Source: Kofleriaceae bacterium
GTDB lineage: Bacteria; Myxococcota_A; Polyangia; Haliangiales; Haliangiaceae
NCBI GenBank assembly: GCA_965215005.1
Contig: CBDCCZ010000003.1
Span: 1 to 64,000 of the forward strand
Length of the DNA stretch: 64,000 nt
Direction of reading: 5' to 3'
A program made the translations under genes and the position numbers. This document shows, one piece after another, positions 47,265 to 64,000 of this stretch. Position 1 is the stretch's first letter; every line of letters begins with the position of its first letter. The notes beneath the pieces were generated by a model, which had not been told where the DNA came from, searched no databases, and saw nothing but the letters and a program-made list of their open reading frames with translations.

Positions 47265-47715
47265 CCCTCCGCTTGAATCGGTCACCGCGCGGGCTTCAGG
47301 AGTGGGGCTGCGTCGAGAAGCGGCGCTCTCCCTCGAGCGGGCAAGCGATACGCGATGCATGCGACGCTGATCGTGCAGCACGGATGGATGGTGGCTCGGC
47401 GCCACGGGGCGTTCGGTGCGGCGCTCCCCCTCGACTTACGGTTTCCGGTGCCGGCTCGGGCCTGTGATCCTTGCCGGGATGCTTGGCTAGCGAAGGTAAC
47501 CGTGCGGTAGCCGCCGCCGATCCCTCCCCGAACCCGATCAGCGCGATCGAGGCGCATCGCTTCATTGGTGAGATCGATGCGCGTGCCGCCGTTGAGAACC
47601 ACACTGGCCTTGCGTCCTTGACCAGCTTGCCGCCAATCAAGTTGCCGTCACGGTAGTGTAAGTTGTGGCCTTGGATGAGCACATTTCCACGTCAAGCGAC
47701 TCCACGAGTGTGAAG

Positions 47716-48714
47716 ATGAGCGCAAGACATCACGCAATTACTGAGTTATCCACGGCGCGGCTCGCCGACATCGCCCGCACGTACGGCCTCGGAGAGCTCC
47801 GTGATGGGCGGCTCTGCAGCGCGGGGCTCATCAACTCGAACTATCAGCTCACGACCTCGAAAGGCAGCTACCTCGTACGGATCTACGCGCCACCTCGAAA
47901 GCGCGAGAATATCGAGTTCGAGCTATCCGTCCTGCGGTATCTCTCGGCACACGATTTTCCTTGCCAGCGTCCCATCGAAGATCTGGATGGGGAGAACATT
48001 GGCTCCCTCAACGAGCGCCTCTATGCGGTCCTCACTTTCCTGCCCGGAGCGACCATCGCATTGGAGGAGCTCTCCGCATCGATCTGCCAGCAGTTCGGCG
48101 CGCTCTACGCCAAGCTGCAGCGGCTGCTTCGCGACTTCGTCCCCGAAGGCATCAAGCCAGATGCGGACTACGTCTTGGTTCAGGAGCTCGTCTCGAGCAT
48201 TCGCTCGATCTTCCGCGACAAGGGTGTTGCCGAGGCTGACCGTGCCCGCATCGAGGCTAGTTGGAACGGCGTATGGCCTCTCTTCCGGGAGACCGAGCGG
48301 TCGGTCGTGCACGGCGATCTCTATTACCAGAACGTGCTCTGCGAGCATGGCAACGTGACGGGCATCATCGACTTCGACGATGCCTTTCTTGGCTCTCCAC
48401 TACTGGACCTCGCCCTCACCATGATGGAGTTCTCCACCTGGCCGGAGAACGAGCTCGACTTCGAGCTCATGGCCGCGCTGCTGACGTCCTATCACGAGCA
48501 TGATCCCCCTCTCCAGGTCACCCCCGAGCGGCTGTGGAACGCGACCCGATTCCAGTGCATCAAGTTCCTCGGCTACACCATTGACCTCACGGTAAAGGCC
48601 GGAGACAAGCCCACAGAAAACGACTACTACAAGCGACTGCTGCATCTGGAGCAAGCCAAGGTCCAGGCGCGATTCGTGGACACCGTGCGGCGATCGTTAG
48701 GCCATGCGGCATGA
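47716..48714 (+). CDS. APH-family phosphotransferase, type II homoserine kinase-like
   Basis: GLINSNY, HGDLYYQNV, IIDFDDA. Confidence 0.8.
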   Translation: MSARHHAITELSTARLADIARTYGLGELRDGRLCSAGLINSNYQLTTSKGSYLVRIYAPPRKRENIEFELSVLRYLSAHDFPCQRPIEDLDGENIGSLNERLYAVLTFLPGATIALEELSASICQQFGALYAKLQRLLRDFVPEGIKPDADYVLVQELVSSIRSIFRDKGVAEADRARIEASWNGVWPLFRETERSVVHGDLYYQNVLCEHGNVTGIIDFDDAFLGSPLLDLALTMMEFSTWPENELDFELMAALLTSYHEHDPPLQVTPERLWNATRFQCIKFLGYTIDLTVKAGDKPTENDYYKRLLHLEQAKVQARFVDTVRRSLGHAA

Positions 48715-48761: not shown

Positions 48762-49889
48762 CTAGGGCTGCCAGTGCGGGTCGATGCCTGCGGCTTCGCA
48801 CGCTGCGGCGATCGAGCCGAAGTAGCGTATGCAGGCTTTCCAGAGGCGGGAATCGATGCGCCAGAGGTTGCGCGCGACGTCATCGTTTCGCTCGGCGACG
48901 GCGCGTAGCTCTTCGACGACGCGCTCGGACGTCCAGGAGCGCCTATTGGGCACCGGCAGACCGGCGGCGAGCAGGGCGTCGGTCCAGGTTGGGAAACGCC
49001 GGTAGACGGACCTCTTGAGTCGGGACGGACAGTTTGCGGCGGTGGTCGTAACGGCTAGGTTGTGTTCGACGCGAGAGCGGAGCTCGGTTATCACTTCGTC
49101 GCGGGACATGAGAGGTGGCCGCGCGCTGTGGAAGTTATCGATTCCGGCCGCCTCTGCCGCCTCTCGAGGACCGGCGTAGAACTTCTTCAGCGTCGGCACC
49201 TTGTCCCAAAGCAGGCGCGGCGTCACCTGCGGCACGGTGGTGGCGAGCTGGCGAATCGCCTCGAGAACGTCATCTATGGCGTGAGCTGGCCGGATGATAC
49301 GGATCTCGTCATAGTCGAAGCCGGCGGCCGTCACTGCCTTCTCCCAACTGCCAAAGTAGAAGTAAGCGGCGGAGGCCAAGTCGCTATCCACCCGAGAGGC
49401 GGCAAGAGAGCGGCCTTTGGCGTGCCGCGCTCGAATCGCCTCAACGACCACCTGTTGATCCCACTGCCGGCGCGGCCGCTCGAGGCGTGGCTCGAGCTTG
49501 ATTCCTGCGGCGGCGCGCGCTTTGCGAAATGTGCCGAAGTAGGCCCGCACAGCAGCCGTGAGCGGCTTGTGACTGCTGGCGCGCAGGTTTTTTTCGGTGA
49601 TGCGCATGCCAGCGCGGTCGAGAGTCTGCAGCTCATCGATCACTTTCTGCGCCGTCCAGACGCGATGCCGGTGACGTGCGGGCACCTCCGCGGCCTCGCG
49701 CGCGGCGTCGAGACTGCCGAAGTGAAGGAGAATCGACCTGTAGAGCCCGTGATGAGAGGTCATGAGGTCGCGAGCCGACATCTCGCCGGCTCGGCTCAAA
49801 GCGCGAAGCTGTAAAAGACACTTCTCTGGTGACGCGAGAATCTTCATCCTGCGGTCGGTCGCCCGCTCCGGTCGCGCTTTTAAGCCCAT
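48762..49889 (-). CDS. Protein of six helical repeats resembling the homing-endonuclease-associated repeat
   Basis: Units W..E.V.E.L...L..A...YFGS...A..AAG; GGAG RBS before ATG 49889; no nuclease motif seen. Confidence 0.72.
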   Translation of the reverse strand: MGLKARPERATDRRMKILASPEKCLLQLRALSRAGEMSARDLMTSHHGLYRSILLHFGSLDAAREAAEVPARHRHRVWTAQKVIDELQTLDRAGMRITEKNLRASSHKPLTAAVRAYFGTFRKARAAAGIKLEPRLERPRRQWDQQVVVEAIRARHAKGRSLAASRVDSDLASAAYFYFGSWEKAVTAAGFDYDEIRIIRPAHAIDDVLEAIRQLATTVPQVTPRLLWDKVPTLKKFYAGPREAAEAAGIDNFHSARPPLMSRDEVITELRSRVEHNLAVTTTAANCPSRLKRSVYRRFPTWTDALLAAGLPVPNRRSWTSERVVEELRAVAERNDDVARNLWRIDSRLWKACIRYFGSIAAACEAAGIDPHWQP

Positions 49890-50143
49890 GGTTCTCCGTA
49901 TCGCTCGGCAGTCGCCATCGGCAACCGCGGGCGCAAGGCCGACAGCATGGAAAGTCCGACTGCCGACGTTCGGCATGCTGCAAAGCGACACTCTATAGCG
50001 TCTGTAGTGGCGCGACAATGGCAAGGCTAGTACCCTGCGCGGCTTCGCGCGTGTAGCTCTTGTGCGCCACAAATGCCGCGGCGCCAGTGTGGTCAGGCGA
50101 TACTTCGGCGAGCTCGCGCAGCGTGAGCTGAGGAGACAACACG

Positions 50144-50968
50144 TTGAACGAACATGTAAAAACGGACGCGGCAGACGTTCGGCTGCTGGAAGGGGAGCCG
50201 AGATTCGACGATACGGCGGATGACTATGCGGCGCATCGGCATGGCTTTCCAGAGGAGTTCTTTGCCCGGCTGGCGGCGAAAGGCCTCTTAAAAGCGGGCG
50301 CGGTGGCGCTAGATGTAGGAACGGGAACCGGCACGGTCGCGCGGGGTCTGGCGAGGCGTGGGCTGCGCGTCTATGGCCTGGATCCGGCGGCCGCGATGAT
50401 CGAGAAGGCCCGTGAGCTATGTGACACAGAGGGACTCTCGATCGAGTTTCGAATTGGCCGCGCGGAAGAAACGGGCATGCAGGACGGGCAGCTCGACCTA
50501 GTCACCGCCGGGCAGTGCTGGCATTGGTTCCTTCATGCCCTAGCGATCAAGGAAATTGTGCGCATCACCAAACCCGCGGCGCAGCTCATCATTGCCCACT
50601 TCGATTGGATTCCGTATCAAGGCGGCGTCGCAGCGTTGTCCGAGGATCTCATCGCTCGACATAACTCGGCGTGGAAAGGCGGCGGCGGAACAGGATTCTA
50701 TCCGGCGTGGGCGATGCAGCTGGGCGAGGCTGGCTTCGGGGAAATCGAAACCTCGACGTTCGACGTCGACTGCAACTATACCCACGCCGGCTGGCGCGGC
50801 AGAATTCGCGCCTCGGCCGGTGTGCAGGGCTCTCTTTGCGCAAGCGAGGTCGCTCGCTTCGACGCCGAGCACGGCCGGCAGCTGTCGGTAGCGTTTCCTG
50901 AGCCGCAGCTCTGCATCCCGCATCGCTGCTTTACCCTCACCGCCCGGCTACCGAGCTCGGCGCGATAG
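50144..50968 (+). CDS. Class I SAM-dependent methyltransferase
   Basis: GAGGAG RBS, TTG start; LDVGTGTG, GLDP..M, AEET, DLVTAGQCWHWF. Confidence 0.9.
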   Translation: MNEHVKTDAADVRLLEGEPRFDDTADDYAAHRHGFPEEFFARLAAKGLLKAGAVALDVGTGTGTVARGLARRGLRVYGLDPAAAMIEKARELCDTEGLSIEFRIGRAEETGMQDGQLDLVTAGQCWHWFLHALAIKEIVRITKPAAQLIIAHFDWIPYQGGVAALSEDLIARHNSAWKGGGGTGFYPAWAMQLGEAGFGEIETSTFDVDCNYTHAGWRGRIRASAGVQGSLCASEVARFDAEHGRQLSVAFPEPQLCIPHRCFTLTARLPSSAR

Positions 50969-50998: not shown

Positions 50999-51850
50999 CT
51001 AGTCAACAATGGGTGCAAGCGTGGAAACACCAGCGCCCCACCACTCGGTGGCCCCTTGGCGGGTATCGAGGACAGCGCCCGTCGAAGGGTCGATGCGCAC
51101 GATTTGCTTCCCGTCGGTGAATCCATAGACTTGACCGCGCCAAAACCCAATACCAAAGATCTTAGCGACACCGATGTCGCCCAACAGAGTCGCTTCCCAG
51201 GTTGTTGGGTCTATGCGAGCCAGCTGATCAGCGCTCGAACCAGCAACGCGTACCGTGGCTAGGGTGCCAAATCCGCTAACTGAGACGATGTCTCCGCTCG
51301 ACCCAATGGCAGATCCTGAAGCATTGTAGTTGCCAAGCTCGCTGCGAGCACCGGTGTCGGGATCGATCTCCCATACGACACCATCGAAGTCGGCTGCGAC
51401 CAACCGCTCCTCGCTATCGGGGTTCGACAGGTCGATCGGGACGAACGACAGGCTGGTGAGGCCGCCTTCCCCTTGGGGAAACGTCGACAGGTGGGTTACC
51501 TCGGCAGTCTTTCGATCGACTCGAAAGACCGAATTCAACGAGATCGCCAGCATTCTGCCGCTCTTATCGACAGCGAGGTCGGTGATGTTCTCCGGCTCAC
51601 CGGCGAACGCGAAGACTCCCACGCTGGTCGTGCTGAGCGATGCTGGATCGAGCTCGTATAGCTCGGTCGCGCTGTGAGCGTAGACCGACACGAAGTCCGG
51701 AGGATCCACCGGCCCACTGCTCGTGCGCGCGTCGGCACTGGGAGCTCCCGCGTCCGCATCGTCGCGAACATCATCAGAGTCGGTTTGCGAATTGACGGTC
51801 GGCCCACACGCTGAGATGGTCAGCAAGGTGGCGGCGAGAAGGTTGCGCAT
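50999..51850 (-). CDS. Myxobacterial-type lipoprotein, probable beta-propeller
   Basis: GGGAG RBS; lipobox ISAC; repeated L..IDP.TG....LG blades. Confidence 0.78.
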   Translation of the reverse strand: MRNLLAATLLTISACGPTVNSQTDSDDVRDDADAGAPSADARTSSGPVDPPDFVSVYAHSATELYELDPASLSTTSVGVFAFAGEPENITDLAVDKSGRMLAISLNSVFRVDRKTAEVTHLSTFPQGEGGLTSLSFVPIDLSNPDSEERLVAADFDGVVWEIDPDTGARSELGNYNASGSAIGSSGDIVSVSGFGTLATVRVAGSSADQLARIDPTTWEATLLGDIGVAKIFGIGFWRGQVYGFTDGKQIVRIDPSTGAVLDTRQGATEWWGAGVSTLAPIVD

Positions 51851-52062
51851 GTTCGTCTCCCAGAGCCAGAAAGCGCGGAACGTACGCCCTCCGGCCGCTG
51901 GCACCAAGCGATGTTGGTGACGCAACGGCAACACCTGCGAGGAAACGGCGAGACTGCGATGAAACGTTACGTACCTTACGGCTCGCAGCTCGCGCTCGTG
52001 CGTGTAGCGGGAGAGAAGCCGGTTCACCAGAGTGAACCGGCTCCGCAATGAACAACGTCGAC

Positions 52063-55000
52063 TTAGAGCTGCTCGCAGGTCGCGGTGCCGGTCGAGTCGT
52101 CGCAGGTCCCGCTCGGACAGAATAGGCTGCCTTCGGGTCCGCAGTACGAAACGCAGACGTAGCCGTTGATGCTGCCATCGAATTGGCAGTTATCGCCAGC
52201 GCCGGAGGAGATGGAGCAACCTTGGGCGCAGCCGCTGCCCACACAGGCATTGTAGGCGTTGTTCCGAGCGGTCGACCACGACGAGCCTGAGGTCCCGCAG
52301 TTGGGGCAGTTACCAACGTGATAGTCGCCGAGTGCGGCGGCGCAGGTGGGCTCGCAGATGCCGTTGGCGTCGTTGTCCTGCCAATCCGGGCCAATTCCGC
52401 CGACGGCGGGATCGTAGTCGTCGCAGTCCGACGCCAACAGGTAGCCGTCGCCGTCAGCATCTGGATCGCACGCGTCGCCGCGTCCGTCGCCATCGAGATC
52501 GTACTGCTGGAGGTTCGGCACGCCCGGACAGTTGTCCGCGTTCCATATCGCCGCACCGCGCGGCTCGCCATTCCAGACGTCGATCATCGACTCGCAGTAG
52601 AAGATGCCGGGAAGGTCAGACGTGCAGACCTCGAGGCCGTAGACGCCACCGGTCGTGAAGACGAGGTCCGACACGCCATCAAAGTTGATGTCGCCTGCCG
52701 CTAGATTCTTCACATCAGTCGCCGCGACGGTCGGCACGGGTTGACACGTAAAGCTTTCCATCGGCAGGCACATCGACAGCGCTTCCGACTGCGATCCGAA
52801 CACCGATGACGGTAGCTGGTCGCCCATGAAATGATCGAGCACTACCGTTGCCGCTCCCACGCTTCCTTCGAGTGCAAAGGAGTAGTCGCAGGAGAAGGTA
52901 TGCCCGACCGGCTCTTGCCAGCACCCGAGTTGCGTAGCACCCATCGTGCTGTCGGAGATCACGATGTCGAGGAGACGGTCACCATCGAAGTCGGCAAGCG
53001 CCAGGTCGGTCGCCAAGTGCGAGCCGTCGCCCAGGTTCGAGCAGGCGAACCCGCCGTAGCCATCGCCATAACAAACGACGCTGCCGTTGCCCTGCATGAC
53101 TGCTCCAGCCAGATCCACGGTGCCATCGAGGTCGATGTCAGCCGCTGCGATGGAGACCATTGGCCCGACGAACGAGCCGAGTGTGTCGCTACAGAAGAAC
53201 GTTCCATCGCCATTGCCCGAACAAATCTCGAGGGTCCCAATTCCGGCGAACGCGGCGTCGAGCAGGCCGTTGCTGTCAAAGTCGCCCACGGCAACGTCGA
53301 GCGTTTGCGCCGTCGCCGAAGACACCGGCTGGCAGGGCTCGAAGCCGCCGTCGGGACTGCCCAAGCAGATCAAGTTGGTTGCCGATTCTGCGGCGAATAC
53401 CGCATCGACGATCGCATCGCCATTGAAGTCACCGAGAGCCACGTTGCGATTTGGCCCCTCGCTATAGGGTATTTGCACGCAGTCGAGGATCTCGAACGCC
53501 GCGTAGCGACAATAGCGGCTCGGGGAGACCGCATCGGCGACTACGACGCAGCCTTCGTCGCAGACGTAGGGGCACGTGTTGCCAACGTACCGGTCTAGGT
53601 CGTTGCAGTCAGTTGCCGCCAACACGCCATCGGCATCCGCATCGCTGTCGCAAGGGTCGCCGACGCCGTCACCGTCGAGGTCCTGTTGCTCAGGGTTGGC
53701 AACACCGACGCAGTTGTCGATCGCATCGTCGACGCCGTCGCCGTCGCCATCGCCGTCGCACGCATCACCCACACCGTCGGCGTCGCTATCCTCTTGATCG
53801 GGGTTGCTGATGGTCGGGCAGTTGTCGAATGCATCGTCAACGCCGTCGCCATCGGCGTCGGGATCGCAGACGTCGCCTGCGCCGTCGCCGTCCTGGTCGG
53901 CTTGATTGCCGTTTGCCAATACTGGACAGTTGTCGACTGTATCGTTGACTCCATCGCCGTCATCATCCGCATCGCAGACATCACCGATCCCATCCGCATC
54001 CAAGTCTTCTTGATTGGCGTTGGCCAGAATCGGGCAGTTGTCGCTGCCATCCGCGATCCCGTCGCCGTCGTCATCCGCATCGCACACGTCACCCACGCCA
54101 TCTCCGTCGAGATCCGCCTGATTGGCGTTGGCCAGAATGGGGCAGTTGTCGCTGCCATCCGCGATCCCGTCGCCGTCGTCGTCCGCGTCGCAAACGTCAC
54201 CCGCGCCGTCGCCATCTAGATCTTCCTGCCCCGGGTTCGGTATCCATTGGCAGTTGTCGACGACATCATCAATTCCATCGCCGTCGACGTCGGGATCGCA
54301 GGAGTCTTGAATGCCGTCGCCATCGGTATCTGGCGACGAGACTGGGTCGTTGCAAAGATCGCAAGCATCACCAATGCCGTCGCCGTCTTGATCGATTTGG
54401 TCTGGGTTCGAATCGACGGGGCAGTTGTCGCACGCGTCGCCAATCCGATCGCCATCGGCATCGCCCTGCCGCGGGTTGGCAACGGTGCTGCAGTTGTCGC
54501 AGCGGTCGCCAATCCCATCCGCATCGGCGTCAGCCTGCCCGGGGTTGTGAAAGCTCGGGCAGTTGTCGCACGAGCCAGGGATTCGGTCTTGATCCGGATC
54601 GACGCGATCATCGCCGCCCGGGCACTGGTCGCAGGCATCGCCCACGCCGTCCTCGTCGCTGTCCATCTGCGAGGTGTTCGGCTCGCTCGGGCAGCTGTCG
54701 ACGGCGCCGCACACGCCGTCGCCGTCGCCGTCACCGCCGGTGCTAGCCGGACACGCGTCGCAGGTAAGCCCACAGCTCGATTCCGCCAGCGCCAAGCAGC
54801 TCTGAGACCAACCATCTTCACAACAGCTCGCATCGAGGTCGCAAACGCACTGAGCGACTTCTTGCTCGCCGCAGCCGAGCGCGGCATCGCCGTCGGCGAC
54901 GCAACAGTCGCCTTCGCAGCTACCGCAGTCGGTCGCGCAGCTGGCGCAGTTCTCCCCCTGCGACCTATCGAACGGGCTCGATTCGGTCCAGCGCTCGCAA

Positions 55001-58000
55001 ACGAAGTCGCCGCAGACTGGCGCGGAGCCGCAGTCGCCCGCGCACGTAGCGGTGGTCTCACCTTCCGAGCACACGCCATCGCCGCAGGCACACGTGCCGC
55101 AGTCGAGCGCGCAGGTGCTGCACGACTCGCCGTCGCCCGCGCGGCACACGCCGTCGCCGCAGGTGTCGGCGCAAGCGCCGCAATCGGCGGCGCAGGTGGT
55201 ACACGTCTCGCCATCGGTGCGGCTGCAGATCGCATCGCCGCAAGTCGGAGGAACCTCACAAAAGCCGCCAGAGAAGCCGCCGGCGCAGTCGCAGCCGTTC
55301 TCGGTGCAGGTCCCGTTACCCGAGCAGTCGGGCCCGCAGACGCAGTCGCCGCCGTCCCAATCGAGAGACGCGCACGCGGCGAGAGCATCGCAGGTGCCGT
55401 TGCCGAGCAGCGTCGCGCGAATCGTGCACTTGCCATTGCAGTCGCGGGTGTAGCCAGCCGGGCACACCGGCCGCACACACTCACCATCGTCGAAGTTGTG
55501 CAGCTCGCAAGCGAAGTTGGGGCCCGCGCTGCCGTCATCGCACCTGCCATCGGATAGCGTTTCGGAGCTGTCGAAGCAGGCGCCGTCGCAGTCGGCAATT
55601 TGACCCGGAGGACAGAATTCTGGCTCGGGAGCCGCGCAGTCACCAAAATCTGCAGCGACCTCGGCGGCGCCACCGCGACCGGTAAAGTCGGAGAGGAACA
55701 CGCGCATGTAGATCTCGCCGAGACCACGCGCGTCGATCAGCCGGATGGGGTTGTTTTGTGCATCGAGCTTGGGATCTCCAGCAGCGTTGCGCAGGTAGAT
55801 CTTCTCGACGTCCAGGTAGTGGAAATCGATCGGCTGCTGGAGCACGAACGGCAGCGGCGCCCCGGTACGAAACTCCACCGTCTCCTCGTTGCTCAAATAC
55901 ATGCCACGGGGCCAAAGGAGCGCACCGGGCATCAGCGTCCCTTCGGCCACGCCACTGCCGCTACCGAGATAGAGCACGGCCGCGTAGCTTTCATCGTTGA
56001 GCACGTCGATGGTGACTTGCCAAAACCCCGCTTTGAGCTCGCCATACGGTCCCGATGGCTCCGGCACGCACGATAGCGCCGGTGCGCGGCTGTCGGTCTC
56101 GCAAGCATCGCCGGTGCCGTCGCCATCGCTATCGACTTGCTGCGGGTTTGGCACCCACGGGCAATTGTCTCGAACACCCGGACCTTTATCAGGCACGCCA
56201 TCTTGATCGACATCGCCGTCAGCGCAGTCGGGCATCCCGTCGGCATCCACATCCGAGTAACCGGGCGAGCCTGGTAATCCGCAGGCGCAATCGGTCGGCT
56301 CGGAATAGAGCACCGGAATCTCCGCATGTACGAAACGCGGCTCGGTCGGATCGAGACGCACCTCCGCAAACATCAATCGTTGCAAGGGACCCTGATTGGC
56401 CACCACCACCCGCCGATCCCAGTTTCCGACCACCTCACCGTTCCCACCGATTTCGGCGTCGCGCTGGGAGAAAATACGCACCTCGCGCGTGCGCTGCTCG
56501 ACCAGGCCGGCAACGACTCTGGCGCTGGCAACGCGATCAGCCGTCGACGGATCGAGCGCACCGGCGATTTCGGGTCCCGCCTGCGCATTGCAGCTGGCAC
56601 CAGCAGCGACTGGATCAGCGCTGGCCGCTGCCAACGTGTACGTGGCGCCAGGTAGCAGCGACATCAGTGGCAACGCCTCGTTGTCGCGCTCGACCGCTTG
56701 GCCCTCGAATCCCGGCGGATTGGGGGCGCCATCGGCCAGCGCATAGAACGCTTTGAGGAAATCTCGCCACGGAAGACCCTCCCGAACCACATCGTAGCCG
56801 TTTCGGTAGAACGCCTCTTCGGTGGGGAAGTACACGCTCAGGCCGGTTGAGTCACTCTTGAGTCGGCCATAGGCCTCGGCGGCGCGCAGCTGCTGGAGCG
56901 CCGCGACCAGGGCAAGGCGGTGCGGCTCGAACGTCGGGTTTCGAGCCGCGAGCGCGGTCGCAAAGTCGCCCATGTCGATCATCTGAAAATCACTGGTGGG
57001 ATCGACGTGATAGCCGTAGCGCGTAACCTTGTCGCGTGCCGCAGCAATGTCAGTCTTGGCGGCGTCGATATTGGCTGCGAGAGCGCCGGCAAACGCGGCA
57101 AACGCGTCGCGAAGCGCCGCCAGGGCTTCGAGATCGAGCAGGTTCAACGTCACCTTCATATGCGTCCGGTTGGATCGAGCGTGCTGATAGAAGCTCTCGA
57201 CCACCTCACGGCCCAGCTCCGGAGCGGCCATGGCAGTGTTGGCTGACAGGCTGCTGAGAAATGCCGTGTAGTCCCAACCGTGTCCCGGCTCGAGCTCCTC
57301 GCTAGCGACGTAATAACGGGTCAAACTGCTAACCCCATCGGCCATGACATAGGTGCTCATCAAGCAAGCATCGAAACCAATGAGATCCAGCCCGTTGAGA
57401 CCGGCAGCCTCGACGCCAGTGCGAAGTGCCGCTTCGATTTCCGCCTGATCGAGCTGATCGTGGCCGGCGTCGTCGTCACCGCCGTATCCCTGCCATGCGT
57501 TGCCGTGGTTCCAGAGCACGAGAAACCGCCGCTCCGCCGGGAAGTTTCCGAAGCCCCACTCGATGAAGTCGGAGAGAGTATTGGGGTCGCCGGTGTTGCT
57601 CTCGCCAAGGTCTTCGAGCTCCTCGAGTGCGCCGCTGCGCACGCGGAATCGCTTCATCGTCTTCCAATCGGCAACCCCGCCAACACCGAGCTCGTAGTAG
57701 CCCGATGCGCGATCCATCTGAACCAGCACGTTGACGTCATCGCTGATCGTCGCGCCCAGCATCTCGTTCAGATCGTCGATCGCGAACTTCTCGAGATTGT
57801 TATCGGCGGCCATGTAGACCAAAACGGTCCATGCCGCGGGCGCAGGCGCGGCATCGGGCTCCGGCGGAGTGCTTGCGTCTGGCTGCAAAGGTCCGGCGTC
57901 TACGGAGCCAGGCGGCATCGTCATCGCGTCGCGATCCGCTGGGGGATCGCCGGATGACTCGCCAGAGCCACCACCGCACGCGGCGGCGAGCGAGGCCACG

Positions 58001-58032
58001 AGACCAAAAAGAAGCGGTAGACGTCGGGTCAT
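52063..58032 (-). CDS. Clostripain-family (C11) cysteine peptidase lipoprotein with TSP3, LNR-like, EGF-like, Cys-rich and FG-GAP repeats
   Basis: Lipobox AAAC; WTVLVYMAADNNLE, LWNHG (His), IGFDACLM (Cys), ASEELEPGHGWDY, GLSVYFP; many D.DGDG.GD.CDNCP...N..Q repeats; GDFNGD repeats. Confidence 0.92.
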   Translation of the reverse strand: MTRRLPLLFGLVASLAAACGGGSGESSGDPPADRDAMTMPPGSVDAGPLQPDASTPPEPDAAPAPAAWTVLVYMAADNNLEKFAIDDLNEMLGATISDDVNVLVQMDRASGYYELGVGGVADWKTMKRFRVRSGALEELEDLGESNTGDPNTLSDFIEWGFGNFPAERRFLVLWNHGNAWQGYGGDDDAGHDQLDQAEIEAALRTGVEAAGLNGLDLIGFDACLMSTYVMADGVSSLTRYYVASEELEPGHGWDYTAFLSSLSANTAMAAPELGREVVESFYQHARSNRTHMKVTLNLLDLEALAALRDAFAAFAGALAANIDAAKTDIAAARDKVTRYGYHVDPTSDFQMIDMGDFATALAARNPTFEPHRLALVAALQQLRAAEAYGRLKSDSTGLSVYFPTEEAFYRNGYDVVREGLPWRDFLKAFYALADGAPNPPGFEGQAVERDNEALPLMSLLPGATYTLAAASADPVAAGASCNAQAGPEIAGALDPSTADRVASARVVAGLVEQRTREVRIFSQRDAEIGGNGEVVGNWDRRVVVANQGPLQRLMFAEVRLDPTEPRFVHAEIPVLYSEPTDCACGLPGSPGYSDVDADGMPDCADGDVDQDGVPDKGPGVRDNCPWVPNPQQVDSDGDGTGDACETDSRAPALSCVPEPSGPYGELKAGFWQVTIDVLNDESYAAVLYLGSGSGVAEGTLMPGALLWPRGMYLSNEETVEFRTGAPLPFVLQQPIDFHYLDVEKIYLRNAAGDPKLDAQNNPIRLIDARGLGEIYMRVFLSDFTGRGGAAEVAADFGDCAAPEPEFCPPGQIADCDGACFDSSETLSDGRCDDGSAGPNFACELHNFDDGECVRPVCPAGYTRDCNGKCTIRATLLGNGTCDALAACASLDWDGGDCVCGPDCSGNGTCTENGCDCAGGFSGGFCEVPPTCGDAICSRTDGETCTTCAADCGACADTCGDGVCRAGDGESCSTCALDCGTCACGDGVCSEGETTATCAGDCGSAPVCGDFVCERWTESSPFDRSQGENCASCATDCGSCEGDCCVADGDAALGCGEQEVAQCVCDLDASCCEDGWSQSCLALAESSCGLTCDACPASTGGDGDGDGVCGAVDSCPSEPNTSQMDSDEDGVGDACDQCPGGDDRVDPDQDRIPGSCDNCPSFHNPGQADADADGIGDRCDNCSTVANPRQGDADGDRIGDACDNCPVDSNPDQIDQDGDGIGDACDLCNDPVSSPDTDGDGIQDSCDPDVDGDGIDDVVDNCQWIPNPGQEDLDGDGAGDVCDADDDGDGIADGSDNCPILANANQADLDGDGVGDVCDADDDGDGIADGSDNCPILANANQEDLDADGIGDVCDADDDGDGVNDTVDNCPVLANGNQADQDGDGAGDVCDPDADGDGVDDAFDNCPTISNPDQEDSDADGVGDACDGDGDGDGVDDAIDNCVGVANPEQQDLDGDGVGDPCDSDADADGVLAATDCNDLDRYVGNTCPYVCDEGCVVVADAVSPSRYCRYAAFEILDCVQIPYSEGPNRNVALGDFNGDAIVDAVFAAESATNLICLGSPDGGFEPCQPVSSATAQTLDVAVGDFDSNGLLDAAFAGIGTLEICSGNGDGTFFCSDTLGSFVGPMVSIAAADIDLDGTVDLAGAVMQGNGSVVCYGDGYGGFACSNLGDGSHLATDLALADFDGDRLLDIVISDSTMGATQLGCWQEPVGHTFSCDYSFALEGSVGAATVVLDHFMGDQLPSSVFGSQSEALSMCLPMESFTCQPVPTVAATDVKNLAAGDINFDGVSDLVFTTGGVYGLEVCTSDLPGIFYCESMIDVWNGEPRGAAIWNADNCPGVPNLQQYDLDGDGRGDACDPDADGDGYLLASDCDDYDPAVGGIGPDWQDNDANGICEPTCAAALGDYHVGNCPNCGTSGSSWSTARNNAYNACVGSGCAQGCSISSGAGDNCQFDGSINGYVCVSYCGPEGSLFCPSGTCDDSTGTATCEQL
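54011..54215. repeat. Near-identical 108-bp tandem unit within the TSP3 array
   Basis: TGATTGGCGTTGGCCAGAAT.GGGCAGTTGTCGCTGCCATCCGCGATCCCGTCGCCGTCGTC starts at both 54011 and 54119. Confidence 0.88.
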
Positions 58033-58156
58033 GGAGCGCGTTTCCTTCATTGAGGAGCTGGCCGTCGGTGGGCGGCAGCAAGCACGTGATTCGTTTCGTA
58101 TGGCAGCGGCACGACGGAGCTCGAGCAAGGGCATCTACCCATCGTTTCGCAATCGG

Positions 58157-60091
58157 CTAGGGAAGCTTGTTTGCGGGCACGTACTGGCCAATCGCCTTGA
58201 GCATGCGCGGATCGCGCTCCTCGCCGTATTGCTTGGCGAGGGCATCCACCGCCGCCGCAGACGATGCCGCCGCCGCGCCAACGAGATGCACGTAGCTTGC
58301 GCGCACCAGCGGGCTTCCTTCATCGCCCAGCCGTGAGACGGCTGCGCTCCAGACCTTGTCCGGCGGTGGTTGCTTCGCCAGCTTGGCCTGATCGGCGAAG
58401 GTCACTGCGAGAAAGGCACGTTGGCGTTCGCCCTTCTCGCCATCTAGAAGACCGGCGAAGAGATCCTCGGTGGCCTCGGGAGGCATGCGTTTGACGGCAC
58501 CGTAGGCATGCTGCCGAACCAGCTCGCTATCCGACTCGAAGAACGGCGCGAGCTCATTGGCGAAGCTCGGATGGCCCGAATTGTGGATTGCATCGAGCGC
58601 AGCGGTCACTTCCACAGGTCCATCACCAGCGGCGAGTTGCTCGCGAATCGCCTGCCGCGCGGTTTCTGCGAGCTGTGGGTGAGACGTCCGCACGTTGTGC
58701 TCGAGCGTGCCGACGCCAAAGCTTGCGGCGTTGCGCAATTGTTGCTCCTGGCTTGCATCGTCGAGACCGGCGCCAACCCGCGACATCTGAACCAGCGCCG
58801 CGAGAGCCTCGTCGTTGGGCTCATCGATGTCGGGCAGCGCCACTGCCGCGCGCATGCGGTTCTCGGGCTGCAGTGCAGCGTCCGCAACACTTTCAATCAA
58901 TACAGTGCGGGCTTCGGGAGTACCGGCGCGCTCGAGGCCAAAGAACACCGCCGAGTGCATCTCGTTTGCCACCTCGCCGTCGCGCACCAGCGCGACCAAC
59001 TCGGCTGCCAACTGCGGCTGAGCGCGCAGCAGCTGCGCCAGCATGTAACCGACTGTGGCGTGCGCGTCGGGGTTGTCGCGCAGCATCGCGCGCGCCATTT
59101 CCATCGCCTCATCGAGCGGCAGCGTCTTGAAACGAGCCGGGGGTTCAGGCTGTTTCTTCGCCATGCGCTCGGCAGGCATAATTCCGCTGGTCCACGCGAG
59201 CGCCTTTAGGTCGGGCAGCGGGCGTCGCTCGGCGTGGTCGCGAACAGCGACTTTGAGTTGTACCGTAACGTCGGCGAGCAGCTGTCCGTCTGTCGATAGC
59301 ACCAGCCGTTCGGTGCCGCTCACCTGCGCCATCCAGACGCCAGCCGCATCCACAACCGCGCTCATCGTGCTCGCGCGGACGCGAATCGAGAGGCTCTCGT
59401 CGGGCTCGGTGGCACCGCGAGCATCGGTGATGACGCCCGGATACACGTGAATGTAGCCAGACTTGATTTTTGAGACGCGGCGGGCGTTGGCGTCTTCGAG
59501 GTGATACTGCGACCAATACTTGCCCGATAGGTCGTGCTCGAGCGCTCGCCAGCTCGGCTGCGCACTCGCAGGATGGAGCACCACCTGAGAGCTCTGCAGC
59601 ATGCCGCGCAGCTGATTTCTTGCCGCCGGAGCGACATCGTTTGCGAAGCCGAAGTCGCGAAACCGACACGTGCGGTCGATCGTGACCGCGAACGGGCGAG
59701 TGATTTGCTCGATGAGCTCGGCGTCGGCGACCCCGACCGTGCTATCGAGCTCGAACTCGACCCCGAGGGTCGCCACGCCGTCGGCGACGACGATAGCGCG
59801 CATGTGGAGAAGACCGCGCATCGTCACGCGCTGTGCGTCGAGGCTGGGCTGCTGCCGAGGATCGGAGGTGGGCATCACGGCGCGGGCGTTGAGCTTGGAC
59901 TCGGCCTCGAGCTCGAAGTCGTAGCTCCGCGCCTGCCCCGGCTCGAATACGCAAGCGAGCGGCGCGGGGCTGCGGCCATTGTTGCGGTCGTCGCCGAGCT
60001 TCCATAACACCGTGGCCACCATCGCAACGGCCAGAAAGCTGGCTCCGGCCAGCAAGAAGCGCATGCGTCTCGCTTTGCTGTTTTTGAACAT
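58157..60091 (-). CDS. Membrane-anchored/exported protein: beta-rich N-half plus HEAT-repeat C-half (vitellogenin/LLTP N-module-like by inference)
   Basis: AGGGGAG RBS; N-terminal TM; FEPGQARSYDF, PFAV, EHDLSGKY.S.Y; HEAT-like GLERAGTPEA..L, ALDAIHNSG, LVRQHAYGAV. Confidence 0.7.
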   Translation of the reverse strand: MFKNSKARRMRFLLAGASFLAVAMVATVLWKLGDDRNNGRSPAPLACVFEPGQARSYDFELEAESKLNARAVMPTSDPRQQPSLDAQRVTMRGLLHMRAIVVADGVATLGVEFELDSTVGVADAELIEQITRPFAVTIDRTCRFRDFGFANDVAPAARNQLRGMLQSSQVVLHPASAQPSWRALEHDLSGKYWSQYHLEDANARRVSKIKSGYIHVYPGVITDARGATEPDESLSIRVRASTMSAVVDAAGVWMAQVSGTERLVLSTDGQLLADVTVQLKVAVRDHAERRPLPDLKALAWTSGIMPAERMAKKQPEPPARFKTLPLDEAMEMARAMLRDNPDAHATVGYMLAQLLRAQPQLAAELVALVRDGEVANEMHSAVFFGLERAGTPEARTVLIESVADAALQPENRMRAAVALPDIDEPNDEALAALVQMSRVGAGLDDASQEQQLRNAASFGVGTLEHNVRTSHPQLAETARQAIREQLAAGDGPVEVTAALDAIHNSGHPSFANELAPFFESDSELVRQHAYGAVKRMPPEATEDLFAGLLDGEKGERQRAFLAVTFADQAKLAKQPPPDKVWSAAVSRLGDEGSPLVRASYVHLVGAAAASSAAAVDALAKQYGEERDPRMLKAIGQYVPANKLP

Positions 60092-60587
60092 TGCTCCCCT
60101 GTTCTACTCGTAAGGTCGAGTGCGCGAAGGCGCCTTCATTCAGCGAAGGGCTACGGCACGAGACTCGGTATCGGCTGCGAGCGGTGATCGCTAAAGGAAC
60201 TTTCGCGGCCCGGCAGCGCGAAAACGTGCCAGGTCACCCACCAGGTATTGAGCGCAGCGAACGCCGCGGGACCCCCAATGTCTACTCGCTCGTAAGGACT
60301 CCTAGTACGCCGCCGCGGGATTGATGACGCAGAAATCCGCCGCCCCGATGCGGGGCAAGGGCGGCAGATTTCTGCTGCTCAGGCGCCCCCTTCGGCGTCT
60401 CCCCAAGCGATTGTTGTTTTTCTAGCGGTTCACGACTTCCGCCGTGAACCACTAGCCGCACGAGGAATAAATCGCCGAGGAGCGACTTTTCCCCTTTGGT
60501 CTGCAGCACATCGTCCGATTCCGGTGGGACTGCGTAGCTCGGCTGCGCGAACAACCACTCGATTGTGGGGGGCGAAGAAATCAAGGC

Positions 60588-63500
60588 ATGAGTCGATTCA
60601 AACATTCATGGATGTTCAGCGCGTTCATAGCGCTGAGTGCCTGCGGCGGTGACAGCACCGACACGTCCGCGGACGGGCCAACGTGCGGCGAAGGGACCGT
60701 CGAACGAGACGGGATGTGCGTCGCCGTGGGCGAGCCCGATCCGGGCTCCACCTGCGGCGAAGGTACGGTGGAAGTAGAGGGCGAATGCGTTGCCGCCTCT
60801 GATTCCCCTCCAGCCGTGTCCGGATTCACGGTCACCCAGCTGTCGCTCACGGCCAAAGGACGGCCGATCAACGGCGGAGAAGGAGATCCGGTTCTGGCCG
60901 TCGACCATCCCGTCGAGGTGACCGTGGGAATCCGCTACGAAGGCGACGCCATGGAGCTGCCGCTGGTCATGGCTCTCGGCGAAGCCGCGGGCAGTGGCGA
61001 CGGCACCGGCTTGTGTTTGCTCGGCGGTCTGGCCGTCGACCATCCCGGCACCGGTGAGGTCGTGGCGACCGGTCGTTTCGTGCTTTCGGAAACCTGCCTC
61101 GCCGACAACCAGGAAGGCGACACTGCCGGTGCGGCGGTGTCGTCGCGGACGATGCTGCCGGTGTTGTTCGTCGATCCGGACGACACGCTCGGCATCGTTG
61201 GTGACGTGCCCAAGGGCGTCATCTTCTCCGCCGAGCGGCTCGCCGACGCGCAGGTCGCGTTTCAGGCCCAGGCCGAGGCAATCGCCAATGGCGAGCAGCC
61301 GATGGCGCTCGATCCCGAACACGTATCGCTGCTCGCCTGCCATCGATCGGGGCACCCCGACGGCAGCTGCGGCGTCGAGCTGGCCGTGGAGGAGAGCGAT
61401 GGCATCGACTTCGAGCTGACCGCGATGGCGCTCGAGAGCTCGGTGCTGGTTCTCAACCGCTGCTTCGCAAGCCAAGCCGAGCTCAATGCCTACGCCGCCG
61501 ATCCGGCGCGGGGCGAAACGCTTCCGACCGGCTATATCTGCAACCGGTCGATCGTGCGCGGCTTCGATGACGAAGGCAATCCGCTGCCCAAGGGCAACGA
61601 GAAAGACTTCACCTATGGCGCGGCCGACGTGGACGTGGACGTGACCGTGACCTCGTTTGGTCTCGACGACTCGATCATCGAGAGCGCCGACGAGCTCATG
61701 GCGCTCGGCACCGAGACCGACGACGGCTTCCAGCTCAACGTCGCACCCGAAGACATCTCGAACAACGCGCTCGGCGCCGACGGCTCCTACACCATCCAGT
61801 ACTTCCTGCGGCCGGTGAGCGCGCCGCTTCAGACCGCGCAGGACGCGTCGCTGGCGGCGGCGATCGAGCGCCTCGGTGGCCTCGATACCCTCGAGGGCAA
61901 CGGCACGCTCGCGCGTCTGTATCTGCATGCCGAAGGCGAGCAGGCCAAGGCCGGCGATGAGGCGACGGTGGGCGGTCAAGCGCAGGCCTCGCTCGAGGAG
62001 ACCCTGTCGATTCCGCAGGTGCCGACCGAGTACAGCCACGGCCTCTACGTCGAGAACGACTGCGGTCGCTTCAACGACCCGACCCGTCGCCCTGGCGACT
62101 ACAACCCCGAGGTCCCGGCTTGCAACCCGGCGATCAATCCGCGCGATGCTCTGCTCTACGGCGCGATGAGGGACGCCAACGACTTCGTCGTCCTGGCATG
62201 CGTCACCGGCACCATCGACGCGGCTCTGCCCGGCTCCGATGATCTCGACAACAACTGCGTCGAGCAGCCGCTGCGCGTGCTTCGCGCCGAGACCCGCCGC
62301 TCGTCCTGGGCCGCCGCCTACCCGGAAGCAACCCCGGCGGAGAACCCGTACCGCGACGATCCCGACGCGGCCGCGCCCGGACGCACCCGTGACGAGCTAT
62401 TCGCGGCCGGCGACGCCGACGGCTACGCGGCCAACTACGACTGGAACCAGCGCTTCGGCAATAACGAAATTGGCCTCGATCTCCACGCCCACAGCCGCAA
62501 CGGCGTGAGCCTGCAAGGCGCCGGGTCGGACAACGAAGCCAAGCTCAGCCTCAGCAGCAATACCTTCTCGTTCAGCCTCGAGCTGGTGCGCATGTGGGCC
62601 CAGGCCGACGCGCGCTCGATCGTCATCGGCAGCTTCTACGACTTTGGCCTCAGCTTCTTCGGCGCCAAGCTGTGGGGCGAGCGCCAAGAGGTGCCCGAGT
62701 ACCATCGCGAGTGGGACTGGAACGTCACCAAGGAGTGGGGCAAATCGAAGAGCATCTTCGTCAAGATCGCCTGGGTCGATGTCGGCGTGAAGGTCGCCGG
62801 CCAGTCCGGCGTGCGCCTCAACCTCGACATCATCGGCCGCGAGCTCGAGGACTGCTCGTCGCCGGAGTGCAACGCCCTGCGCCAGCTCTACAGCGAGCAG
62901 GGAACCGACACGGTCGGCGAGGCATCGATCACGCTCACGCCGTACGGCAACATCAACGCGAACATCTTTGCCGCGGTCAGCATCCAGGTCGCACGCGCCG
63001 GTGCCGCCGGCGACCTCACCATCGCCAACCTCGAGCTTCCGGCCCGTGGCGCGCTCACCTTCGGCCTGGTCGGCAGCATTCAGGATCTGCAGAATGCGCG
63101 CTTGCAGCTGGCGGCGTTTGCCAATCTCCAGCTGAACTCGCAATTCTTGAATGGTCGTTTGTATCTGTTCGCCGAAAACCGTTCCATCCACTGGTGCTCG
63201 AGCTGGGGCATTCCCTATCCGTGCGGTCTGAGCTGGAACAAGTTCTGGGACCAGACGATCGCGAGCTGGAACGGCTGGAGCTACAACCAGGTTTTGTGGG
63301 CCTCGCCCACCTTCCACGCTGCGCTCACCCGCAACGGTGTCGAAGGCGGCAGGATCGATCATTTCGCCGGGAACTACCAGCTGCGCGCACTGCACTCCAA
63401 CAAGTGCATGGACTCCTACAGCGACGGCAACACCAAGCAGTGGGGCTGCGTCGGTGCTCCGCACCACGTATGGCGTTTCGAGGACATGGGTGACGGTTCC

Positions 63501-63773
63501 TACCGGATCATCAACAACCAGTACAACAAGTGCCTCGATGTGGCCGGTGCGGGTACCCACAACGGTGCCAACGTTATCACCTGGAGTTGCCACAACGGCG
63601 CCAATCAGCGCTTCCGACTCCTCTCGCGCGGCGGCAGCGACTATGCGCTCCAGAACGTTCATAGCGGTCGGTGTGTAGAAGTTGGCGGTTACCGTCATGA
63701 AGACAACGCCAACATGAACCAGTGGGACTGTCATTACGGTCCGAACCAGATCTGGCGGTTGTTTCGCCAGTAG
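60588..63773 (+). CDS. Large lipoprotein with acidic N-region, amphipathic beta-strand region and C-terminal ricin-type beta-trefoil lectin
   Basis: Lipobox LSAC; two TCGEGTVE..G.CV repeats; ricin repeats NKCMD..QWGC, NKCLDV..NQRF, GRCVEV..QWDC..NQIW. Confidence 0.85.
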   Translation: MSRFKHSWMFSAFIALSACGGDSTDTSADGPTCGEGTVERDGMCVAVGEPDPGSTCGEGTVEVEGECVAASDSPPAVSGFTVTQLSLTAKGRPINGGEGDPVLAVDHPVEVTVGIRYEGDAMELPLVMALGEAAGSGDGTGLCLLGGLAVDHPGTGEVVATGRFVLSETCLADNQEGDTAGAAVSSRTMLPVLFVDPDDTLGIVGDVPKGVIFSAERLADAQVAFQAQAEAIANGEQPMALDPEHVSLLACHRSGHPDGSCGVELAVEESDGIDFELTAMALESSVLVLNRCFASQAELNAYAADPARGETLPTGYICNRSIVRGFDDEGNPLPKGNEKDFTYGAADVDVDVTVTSFGLDDSIIESADELMALGTETDDGFQLNVAPEDISNNALGADGSYTIQYFLRPVSAPLQTAQDASLAAAIERLGGLDTLEGNGTLARLYLHAEGEQAKAGDEATVGGQAQASLEETLSIPQVPTEYSHGLYVENDCGRFNDPTRRPGDYNPEVPACNPAINPRDALLYGAMRDANDFVVLACVTGTIDAALPGSDDLDNNCVEQPLRVLRAETRRSSWAAAYPEATPAENPYRDDPDAAAPGRTRDELFAAGDADGYAANYDWNQRFGNNEIGLDLHAHSRNGVSLQGAGSDNEAKLSLSSNTFSFSLELVRMWAQADARSIVIGSFYDFGLSFFGAKLWGERQEVPEYHREWDWNVTKEWGKSKSIFVKIAWVDVGVKVAGQSGVRLNLDIIGRELEDCSSPECNALRQLYSEQGTDTVGEASITLTPYGNINANIFAAVSIQVARAGAAGDLTIANLELPARGALTFGLVGSIQDLQNARLQLAAFANLQLNSQFLNGRLYLFAENRSIHWCSSWGIPYPCGLSWNKFWDQTIASWNGWSYNQVLWASPTFHAALTRNGVEGGRIDHFAGNYQLRALHSNKCMDSYSDGNTKQWGCVGAPHHVWRFEDMGDGSYRIINNQYNKCLDVAGAGTHNGANVITWSCHNGANQRFRLLSRGGSDYALQNVHSGRCVEVGGYRHEDNANMNQWDCHYGPNQIWRLFRQ

Positions 63774-63838
63774 CTCGGCCGTGACTCGTTAGACGATGTC
63801 CCGGGTGCGGCATGTGCCCGGGCATCGGTGCTCATCAG

Positions 63839-63882
63839 AGGGCCGCTCGGATGTTCTGTCCGAGCGGCCCTTCCGTATTTTT
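63839..63882 (+). terminator. Intrinsic terminator after the lectin lipoprotein
   Basis: 13-bp perfect stem AGGGCCGCTCGGA / TCCGAGCGGCCCT followed by TCCGTATTTTT. Confidence 0.75.
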
Positions 63883-64000
63883 AGCGCCGATCCAAGGAGA
63901 CTCCGTGAACTTGCGCAACGGCCCGGCGTTTCCATCCAACGCCGCAATCGTCACCTCAGTCGCCCGCGCTGGAGCCCGCGTCGCTGGGCTCGCGTTCTTG

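Follow-up and report, generated by a model that had tools for sequence, protein, structure and literature searches.

Large lipid transfer proteins (LLTPs) build yolk and plasma lipoproteins, and two of them, vitellogenin and apoB, carry further modules: vWD, phosvitin and the apoB beta-belt. Lipovitellin/vitellogenin (PDB 1LSH, 9ENS, 9ENR) and apoB100 beta-alpha-1 (9BD1, 9BD8) come from animal, single-chain proteins of 1000 to 4500 residues with a large, funnel-shaped cavity, and the alpha subunit of MTP (6I7S, 8EOJ) is the smallest LLTP. In the accessible parts of two published accounts, LLTPs are presented as animal proteins (PMC1783640, PMC6717300). Here we describe two divergent genes, P0001 and P0002, in a 64,000-nucleotide stretch of a Kofleriaceae bacterium genome (contig CBDCCZ010000003.1, positions 1 to 64,000; hereafter the window), whose products probably make up, one half each, an exported bacterial counterpart of the LLTPs that consists of two chains. 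The barrel-solenoid half belongs to the LLTP N-terminal module family and the two gene families are linked across genomes, the other half is predicted to dock where the LLTP sheets are missing, and the complex may hold lipid or other hydrophobic cargo outside the cytoplasm. We class the pair as an LLTP-like two-chain variant, i.e., LLTP-like in trans, and not as a canonical single-chain member, because sheets in the same chain are a defining feature that the bacterial proteins lack.

P0001 is a bacterial member of the LLTP N-module family. Its AlphaFold2 model, built from an alignment of 69 family members (alignment A1), has a predicted local distance difference test score (pLDDT) of 92.3 and a predicted template modelling score (pTM) of 0.82, with a helix at amino acids (aa) 6-33, strands over aa 54-302 and an all-helical repeat over aa 319-635. 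An N-terminal beta-barrel directly followed by a two-layer alpha-helical superhelix is thus found in P0001 as it is in LLTPs. A Foldseek search of the PDB with this model returned LLTPs exclusively on ranks 1 to 11, among them MTP (6i7s, E 3e-15), lipovitellin (1lsh, E 7e-15, TM score 0.52), bee vitellogenin (9ens, E 3e-13), apoB100 (9bd1, E 3e-13) and the apoB barrel (9bd8_A, E 9e-9), with generic ARM/HEAT proteins following from 2e-5. The barrel as well as the solenoid contributes to these matches, which align 524-535 residues, and sequence identity to lipovitellin, vitellogenin and apoB100 is 13-16%. Two near-invariant cysteines, C47 and C142, lie in the barrel region of P0001; the barrel disulfide of MTP is formed by Cys174 and Cys194, according to the part of that account available to us (PMC6717300).

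The sequence-only link of P0001 to LLTPs is weaker. Pfam Vitellogenin_N matches aa 381-525 (profile positions 360-509 of 590, i.e., the helical part only) with 45.1 bits against a cut-off of 24 (E 7e-12), HEAT_2 matches as well, and within alignment A1 the two models are found in 43 and 66 of the 69 members, respectively. Searched against PDB sequences, the A1 profile finds designed HEAT repeats at 1e-62, lipovitellin 1lsh at 2.3e-4 and MTP at 0.011; the single P0001 sequence retrieves nothing there at E <= 1, and NCBIfam holds no model that matches it. A full HMMER scan of 1.84 billion representatives yielded a family of 936 clusters at 50% identity for E <= 1e-3, and tightening the threshold to 1e-10 leaves 355 of them, and to 1e-30, 50. 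Lengths among the best 150 of the 936 representatives, most of which are full-length, range over 163-698 aa, and no form fused to sheets appears in this set. P0001 itself ends at aa 644, straight after its last helix and at the point where the C- and A-sheets of an LLTP would start, so that no C-/A-sheet domain is present in the same polypeptide. In MTP, the helical domain ends at residue 603 and the A/C-sheet lipid-binding domain spans residues 604-884, as given in the accessible part of its description (PMC6717300).

The candidate for these missing sheets is a domain of P0002, aa 612-919, that is predicted to consist of long strands. Its beta-periodic hydrophobic moment lies above all 500 of 500 composition-matched shuffles (z = 3.9), so its strand alternation goes beyond chance; the other three parts of P0002 score z = 0.8, 1.2 and -1.1 by the same measure. 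A Foldseek search with the whole P0002 model, which is of low confidence, matched lipovitellin (E 1.5e-3, probability 0.97, 312 columns) and MTP (E 2.9e-3, probability 1.00, 316 columns), and in this low-confidence model the beta domain covers the MTP sheet domain end to end at a root-mean-square deviation (rmsd) of ca. 8 Å. By coverage and rmsd the fold evidence favours LLTP sheets and is not decisive. Complement C3/C4/C5, CD109 and alpha-2-macroglobulin headed the Foldseek list for the full-length P0002 model and were rejected as generic beta-sandwich stacks (TM score ca. 0.1, rmsd above 30 Å). Aerolysin or MACPF folds are not among the 50 matches listed in the structure comparisons of this low-confidence model, which does not amount to their absence. 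A search of the ESM Atlas with aa 600-925 gave unnamed clusters exclusively, with a score of 0.87 that lies below the 0.9 level used for leads.

Co-folding of P0001 aa 40-644 (alignment A1) with P0002 aa 598-925 (alignment A4, 39 rows) gave interface scores (ipSAE) of 0.79, 0.82 and 0.81 in three runs (median 0.81), compared with 0.00 for the best of three controls. Of 157 solved complexes, 116 reach this mark, as do 2 of 215 mismatched pairs. The contacts agree between runs to at least 82%, and the partner chain has a pLDDT of 65-76. The predicted interface of 316-346 contacts involves the barrel of P0001 (aa 61-91, 126-130, 159-167, 187-189, 216-236 and 261-277) together with the inner solenoid face (aa 342-595) and includes the invariant N504 and the conserved D187, F383, R414 and H503 of P0001. 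In MTP, the helical domain is described as clamping the two sheets, of which the A-sheet rests against the barrel (PMC6717300), and the co-fold model predicts the same arrangement for the bacterial pair.

The two gene families are also linked in genomes, with a P0002-type beta-domain gene adjoining a P0001-type gene in 32 of 46 loci. The partner lies upstream in tandem in 23 of these paired loci, downstream in tandem in four, divergently in three and convergently in two, and adjacency persists down to 13-20% identity of the partner protein. What is conserved in the partners is a beta domain of ca. 290 aa at or near the C-terminus, whereas their N-terminal parts vary. Forty of the loci were fetched via relatives of P0001, and among these an adjacent partner was found in 19 with the plain hidden Markov model (HMM) of the P0002 family and in 26 with an HMM iterated on the neighbours' open frames. 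In loci reached via relatives of P0002, the P0001-type neighbour is divergent in the window and in L008 and convergent in L004, and three others (L009, L011 and L012) are tandem with the partner gene first and gaps of a few bases. Contig ends truncate three more (L006, L007 and L013); the metagenome-assembled genome (MAG) of L006 and L007 has P0001-type genes on other contigs. On the short contig of L010, no adjacent P0001-type gene was seen. Several stop-to-stop frames of 1000-1700 aa with a P0001-type domain look like fusions (L046, L050, L064, L079 and L083). In L083, L046 and L050 the partner gene lies in another frame or on the other strand, and these three are therefore long open frames of GC-rich DNA.

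Of 301 genomes from the phylum, 77 contain a match to the A1 profile at E <= 1e-10, in part a HEAT-only one, with up to four copies in a single genome. Among the 61 genomes of the closest relatives, which include the source genome, a P0001 homologue occurs in only two, the source genome and G051, and the Pfam model PF01347 has no match in 14 control genomes.

These results bear out an initial annotation that was made from the sequence alone and had proposed that two divergent genes could reconstitute an LLTP-like heterodimer. Both genes lie where it had placed them, the beta-rich N-half and the alpha superhelix that it read in P0001 recur in the AlphaFold2 model, and the motifs it had quoted from this gene sit on near-invariant columns of the family (C47, C142, D187, G190 and Y196). 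Both peptides that it had quoted from the partner are found at aa 726-746 (nucleotides 62763-62825) and aa 782-812 (nucleotides 62931-63023), inside the strand-rich stretch of the size it had estimated at about 300 aa. The Foldseek comparison and the co-folding of the two chains that it had suggested as checks, given above, together with the conserved pairing support the heterodimer.

Several observations weigh against our interpretation. The P0002 monomer model is poor (mean pLDDT 61.4, pTM 0.42, with pLDDT of 50-65 in the beta domain), profiles A3 and A4 found nothing relevant among PDB sequences (one chance match at E 4.4 and none, respectively), and Pfam Vit_open_b-sht was detected in just one of 39 domain sequences and there non-significantly (E 0.16). 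The co-fold score may stem from the model's memory of single-chain LLTP structures, and the calibration counts for that score are approximate owing to the custom alignments. Residues of P0001 at the interface are not more conserved than the rest (0.321 versus 0.381), and in the beta domain the interface residues exceed the others only by a little (0.378 versus 0.297). No partner was seen in 14 of the 46 loci. Around one P0002 paralogue (L005), 8.4 kb of upstream and 3.5 kb of downstream sequence contain no gene of the P0001 type, and at E <= 1e-20 such a gene is also missing from the genome of L010. Moreover, P0001 and P0002 are divergent in the window and not co-transcribed, and P0002 is followed by a terminator-like hairpin of its own.

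Three other explanations of the locus deserve consideration. The beta domain of P0002 could be a membrane-inserting element, either an outer-membrane barrel or a beta-pore-forming toxin aimed by its lectin, with P0001 as a mere HEAT-repeat chaperone or scaffold that has no lipid pocket. Barrel proteins such as TamA and LptD do match the beta domain, but only generically: long barrel alignments have an rmsd of 17-19 Å and shorter ones cover ca. 80-100 residues, whereas the match to the MTP domain runs over its full length at ca. 8 Å. The outer-membrane beta-signal ends in an aromatic residue, yet P0002 relatives without the ricin domain end in ...YAIP or ...ATIP. The domain also retains conserved cysteine pairs (C870, C879) and is placed on P0001 by the co-fold with more than 300 contacts, and P0001 is a full LLTP N-module instead of a bare HEAT repeat, which together make membrane insertion improbable to us. 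A chance adjacency of unrelated neighbours, with P0001 as a HEAT-repeat protein and its Vitellogenin_N match as repeat noise, would agree with the dominance of designed HEAT repeats in the PDB profile search (1e-62 versus 2e-4 for lipovitellin) and with the rarity of P0001 homologues among the closest relatives. This explanation is scarcely credible given that barrel and solenoid both match LLTPs over 524-535 residues, that the top 11 Foldseek ranks are all LLTPs and that adjacency is kept in 32 of 46 loci in four orientations with partner identity as low as 13-20%.

Finally, the pair might form a real LLTP-shaped complex that serves recognition of and adhesion to surfaces or matrix, binding glycans or proteins together with its TSP3, FG-GAP and peptidase neighbours, instead of carrying lipid, comparable to the pattern recognition reported for animal vitellogenins. 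Adhesion-type modules indeed abound in the cassette around the two genes (ricin-B or C-type lectin, TSP3 and TSP1 repeats, FG-GAP, Laminin_G, NIDO and two types of peptidase), and immune and pathogen-binding roles are described for vitellogenin in sources that were partly accessible. We nevertheless consider this unlikely, since the beta domain is strongly amphipathic and the sole invariant part of otherwise variable partners, as would be expected of a conserved hydrophobic pocket more than of a recognition surface that varies.

As a two-chain LLTP counterpart, the pair differs from the described systems in several respects. Unlike MTP, the bacterial version is split over two genes, and in 23 of the 32 loci with a pair the sheet-bearing gene precedes the other, which inverts the order of domains in an LLTP. 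The bacterial system has no evident PDI partner, and both chains carry putative envelope export signals. Compared with MTP, the bacterial partner adds cysteine hairpins, a beta-sandwich and a lectin, and its sheet domain has no sequence similarity to that of MTP; none of the further vitellogenin and apoB modules named above (vWD, phosvitin, beta-belt) was seen in the pair. Known carriers of lipids in the bacterial envelope are LolA/LolB, LptA, Mla and AsmA/TamB-like bridges. The pair presumably shares their task of taking hydrophobic cargo across an aqueous compartment in diderm cells, and no fold relationship to these families turned up, with no search aimed at the families as such.

The remaining parts of P0002 would attach and direct the complex. 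From its translation, P0002 qualifies as a putative lipoprotein with a signal peptide ending in a cysteine-containing lipobox, for which we take the lipobox consensus as the basis, and the cysteine after the hydrophobic stretch is kept in its full-length relatives P0008, P0011 and P0012. The CGxGTxExxGxC motif that follows recurs at the N-termini of distant partner proteins. Behind the lipoprotein signal of partners, this hairpin is present in two to four copies, and it occurs alone in neighbours of distant P0001-type genes (L074 and L078). The C-terminal 135 aa are a clear member of the ricin-B lectins, matching RicinB_lectin_2 (PF14200; E 7e-29, 100.8 bits versus a cut-off of 25.6), Ricin_B_lectin (PF00652; E 8e-17, 62.1 versus 29) and ThreeFoil in the PDB (E 1.3e-30). 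Outside this tail, P0002 has no Pfam or PDB sequence match, and NCBIfam returned lectin models only. Compared with ricin-B lectins proper, the domain is an optional tail: the P0002 family comprises about a dozen proteins, of which four to five have the lectin (ca. 1000-1136 aa) and the others (ca. 850-890 aa, including the 855-890-aa subfamily) do not, with the nearest relatives found in Polyangiales bacterium MAGs. Three of 39 partners have a C-type lectin instead of the ricin-B domain found here. In these loci (L062, L067 and L068) the partner lies downstream of the P0001-type gene and its beta domain is followed by the C-type lectin (E down to 1.7e-6), so the lectin module has been swapped within the family.

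Three large genes, P0003, P0001 and P0002, occupy positions 52063-63773, in a region with 61-69% G+C and no sign of an island (Table 1). The source assembly amounts to 6.2 Mb in 62 contigs. No sigma-70-like sites were found at 51800-64000 (shuffle mean 1.4), in a scan that is uninformative for this kind of organism. Terminator-like sites in the region number seven compared with a shuffle mean of 7.8, i.e., there is no excess, and the hairpin behind P0002 is only a lead. This hairpin lies inside the 5' end of the annotated FG-GAP/ASPIC gene, whose true start is therefore probably further downstream.

Table 1. Features of the P0001/P0002 locus and its surroundings. Positions refer to the window unless marked with G000 (source genome) or L003 (the fetched locus that continues beyond the window).
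Feature	Position	Strand	Remark
P0001	58157-60091	-	ORF (open reading frame), 644 aa; LLTP N-terminal module (beta-barrel and alpha-solenoid), putative export signal
P0001 hydrophobic N-terminal helix, aa 6-33	59993-60076	-	sequence and AlphaFold2 model; signal peptide or signal anchor
P0001 beta-barrel (LLTP N-sheet), aa 54-302	59186-59932	-	near-invariant C47, C142, D187, G190, Y196
P0001 alpha-helical solenoid, aa 319-635	58187-59137	-	bears the Pfam match
P0001/P0002 divergent intergenic region	60092-60587		496 bp, from ORF coordinates
P0002	60588-63773	+	ORF, 1061 aa; putative lipoprotein: Cys hairpins, beta-sandwich, middle region, amphipathic beta domain, ricin-B lectin
P0002 putative lipoprotein signal, L-S-A-C at aa 16-19	60588-60644	+	read from the translation
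two CGxGTxExxGxC Cys hairpins, aa 33-45 and 56-68	60684-60791	+	translation and alignment A2
P0002 N-terminal beta-sandwich, aa 75-270	60810-61397	+	generic carbohydrate-binding or FnIII-like shape
P0002 amphipathic beta domain, aa 612-919	62421-63344	+	conserved core of the partner family; candidate A/C-sheet lipid pocket
P0002 ricin-B (beta-trefoil) lectin, aa 927-1059	63366-63764	+	Pfam and PDB match
terminator-like hairpin	63838-63872	+	65 nt past the P0002 stop; 16-pair stem, 10 G-C, T-rich tail
P0003	52063-58134	-	ORF, up to 2023 aa; directly downstream of P0001, same strand
FG-GAP_3/UnbV_ASPIC protein, 622 aa	ca. 63812-65680 (window 63812-64000, on to L003:2181)		directly after P0002
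415-aa protein, source-genome copy	G000:C3:65725-66972 = L003:2226-3473		just outside the window; 43% identical to the L008 copy
open frame, 1106 aa	40930-44250	+	no Pfam match at E <= 0.01
Ser/Thr kinase with TPR repeats	44301-47405	-	
APH-type phosphotransferase	47665-48714	+	
HNH-repeat protein	48762-50072	-	
class I methyltransferase	50144-50968	+	
DUF4394/DUF6923 protein	50999-52048	-	
paralogous RoxA-like di-haem cytochrome c pair	L003:3544-5325 and L003:5797-7659	-	downstream of the cassette; followed by a kinase-AAA_16 protein

The gene pair is part of a cassette whose products are exported and of matrix-like or proteolytic character. P0003 matches Peptidase_C11 (clostripain-like, E 3e-47), TSP_3 (E 5e-70) and FG-GAP_3 in Pfam and belongs to a BLAST cluster (c3) that lies beside the LLTP-like pair in 10 of 26 clustered loci. 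Two of the three c3 members from other loci that were scanned with Pfam have the C11 domain (L012 and L054), and the third, from L008, has TSP_3 and Laminin_G_3 without C11; the cluster may therefore be grouped partly via shared repeats. P0003 also shows at least 10 thrombospondin type-3 (TSP3) repeats, cysteine-rich EGF-like stretches, FG-GAP repeats and an internal methionine followed by an L-A-A-C lipobox. A second family, of 415-500 aa, is likewise found in 10 of 26 clustered loci. Its 415-aa member in the source genome has no Pfam match and contains HELGHYLGLLH, an instance of the HExxHxxGxxH zinc-peptidase motif, and two of its homologues match Peptidase_M10/M43 weakly. A homologue of the FG-GAP/ASPIC protein directly follows the P0001-type gene in L009.

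From these elements we propose the following mode of action. P0001 contributes the barrel and the alpha-helical clamp, as its family and fold matches show, and aa 612-919 of P0002 are predicted to dock on the barrel and the inner solenoid face, where the A- and C-sheets sit in MTP and lipovitellin, closing a hydrophobic pocket. The lipoprotein signal would tether P0002, and the beta-sandwich and the ricin-B lectin may aim the complex at glycans on a surface, a matrix or prey. The job of the complex would be to pick up, hold or shuttle lipid or other hydrophobic cargo, either in the periplasm or extracellularly, possibly jointly with its conserved neighbours, i.e., the C11 cysteine peptidase with TSP3 repeats, the metzincin-motif protein and the FG-GAP/ASPIC protein. 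A bolder and rather doubtful extension is that the module arose long ago in bacteria and that eukaryotic LLTPs descend from it, with MTP, vitellogenin and apoB having arisen by fusion of a barrel-solenoid gene and a sheet-domain gene of this kind, and that its bacterial role is that of a hitherto undescribed class of lectin-aimed bulk lipid shuttle of the envelope or the extracellular space that, e.g., strips lipid from prey or matrix.

A literature search with subscription journals outside its coverage, and with its sources accessible in part, returned no paper on a bacterial LLTP. With the two neighbouring genes described here, bacteria may own a two-piece version of a machine that has been described only in eukaryotes. 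A widespread bacterial family with an LLTP N-module alters the picture of LLTPs as animal proteins and provides a target for annotation, with such proteins currently named "hypothetical", "HEAT repeat protein" or "Lipoprotein amino terminal region". If our interpretation is true, the history of the LLTP fold would reach into bacteria, and the pair would be a natural split system in which clamp and pocket could be separately expressed, mixed and mutated for the study of lipid loading in LLTP cavities. For the bacteria themselves, it may represent an undescribed route of lipid handling in diderm cells.

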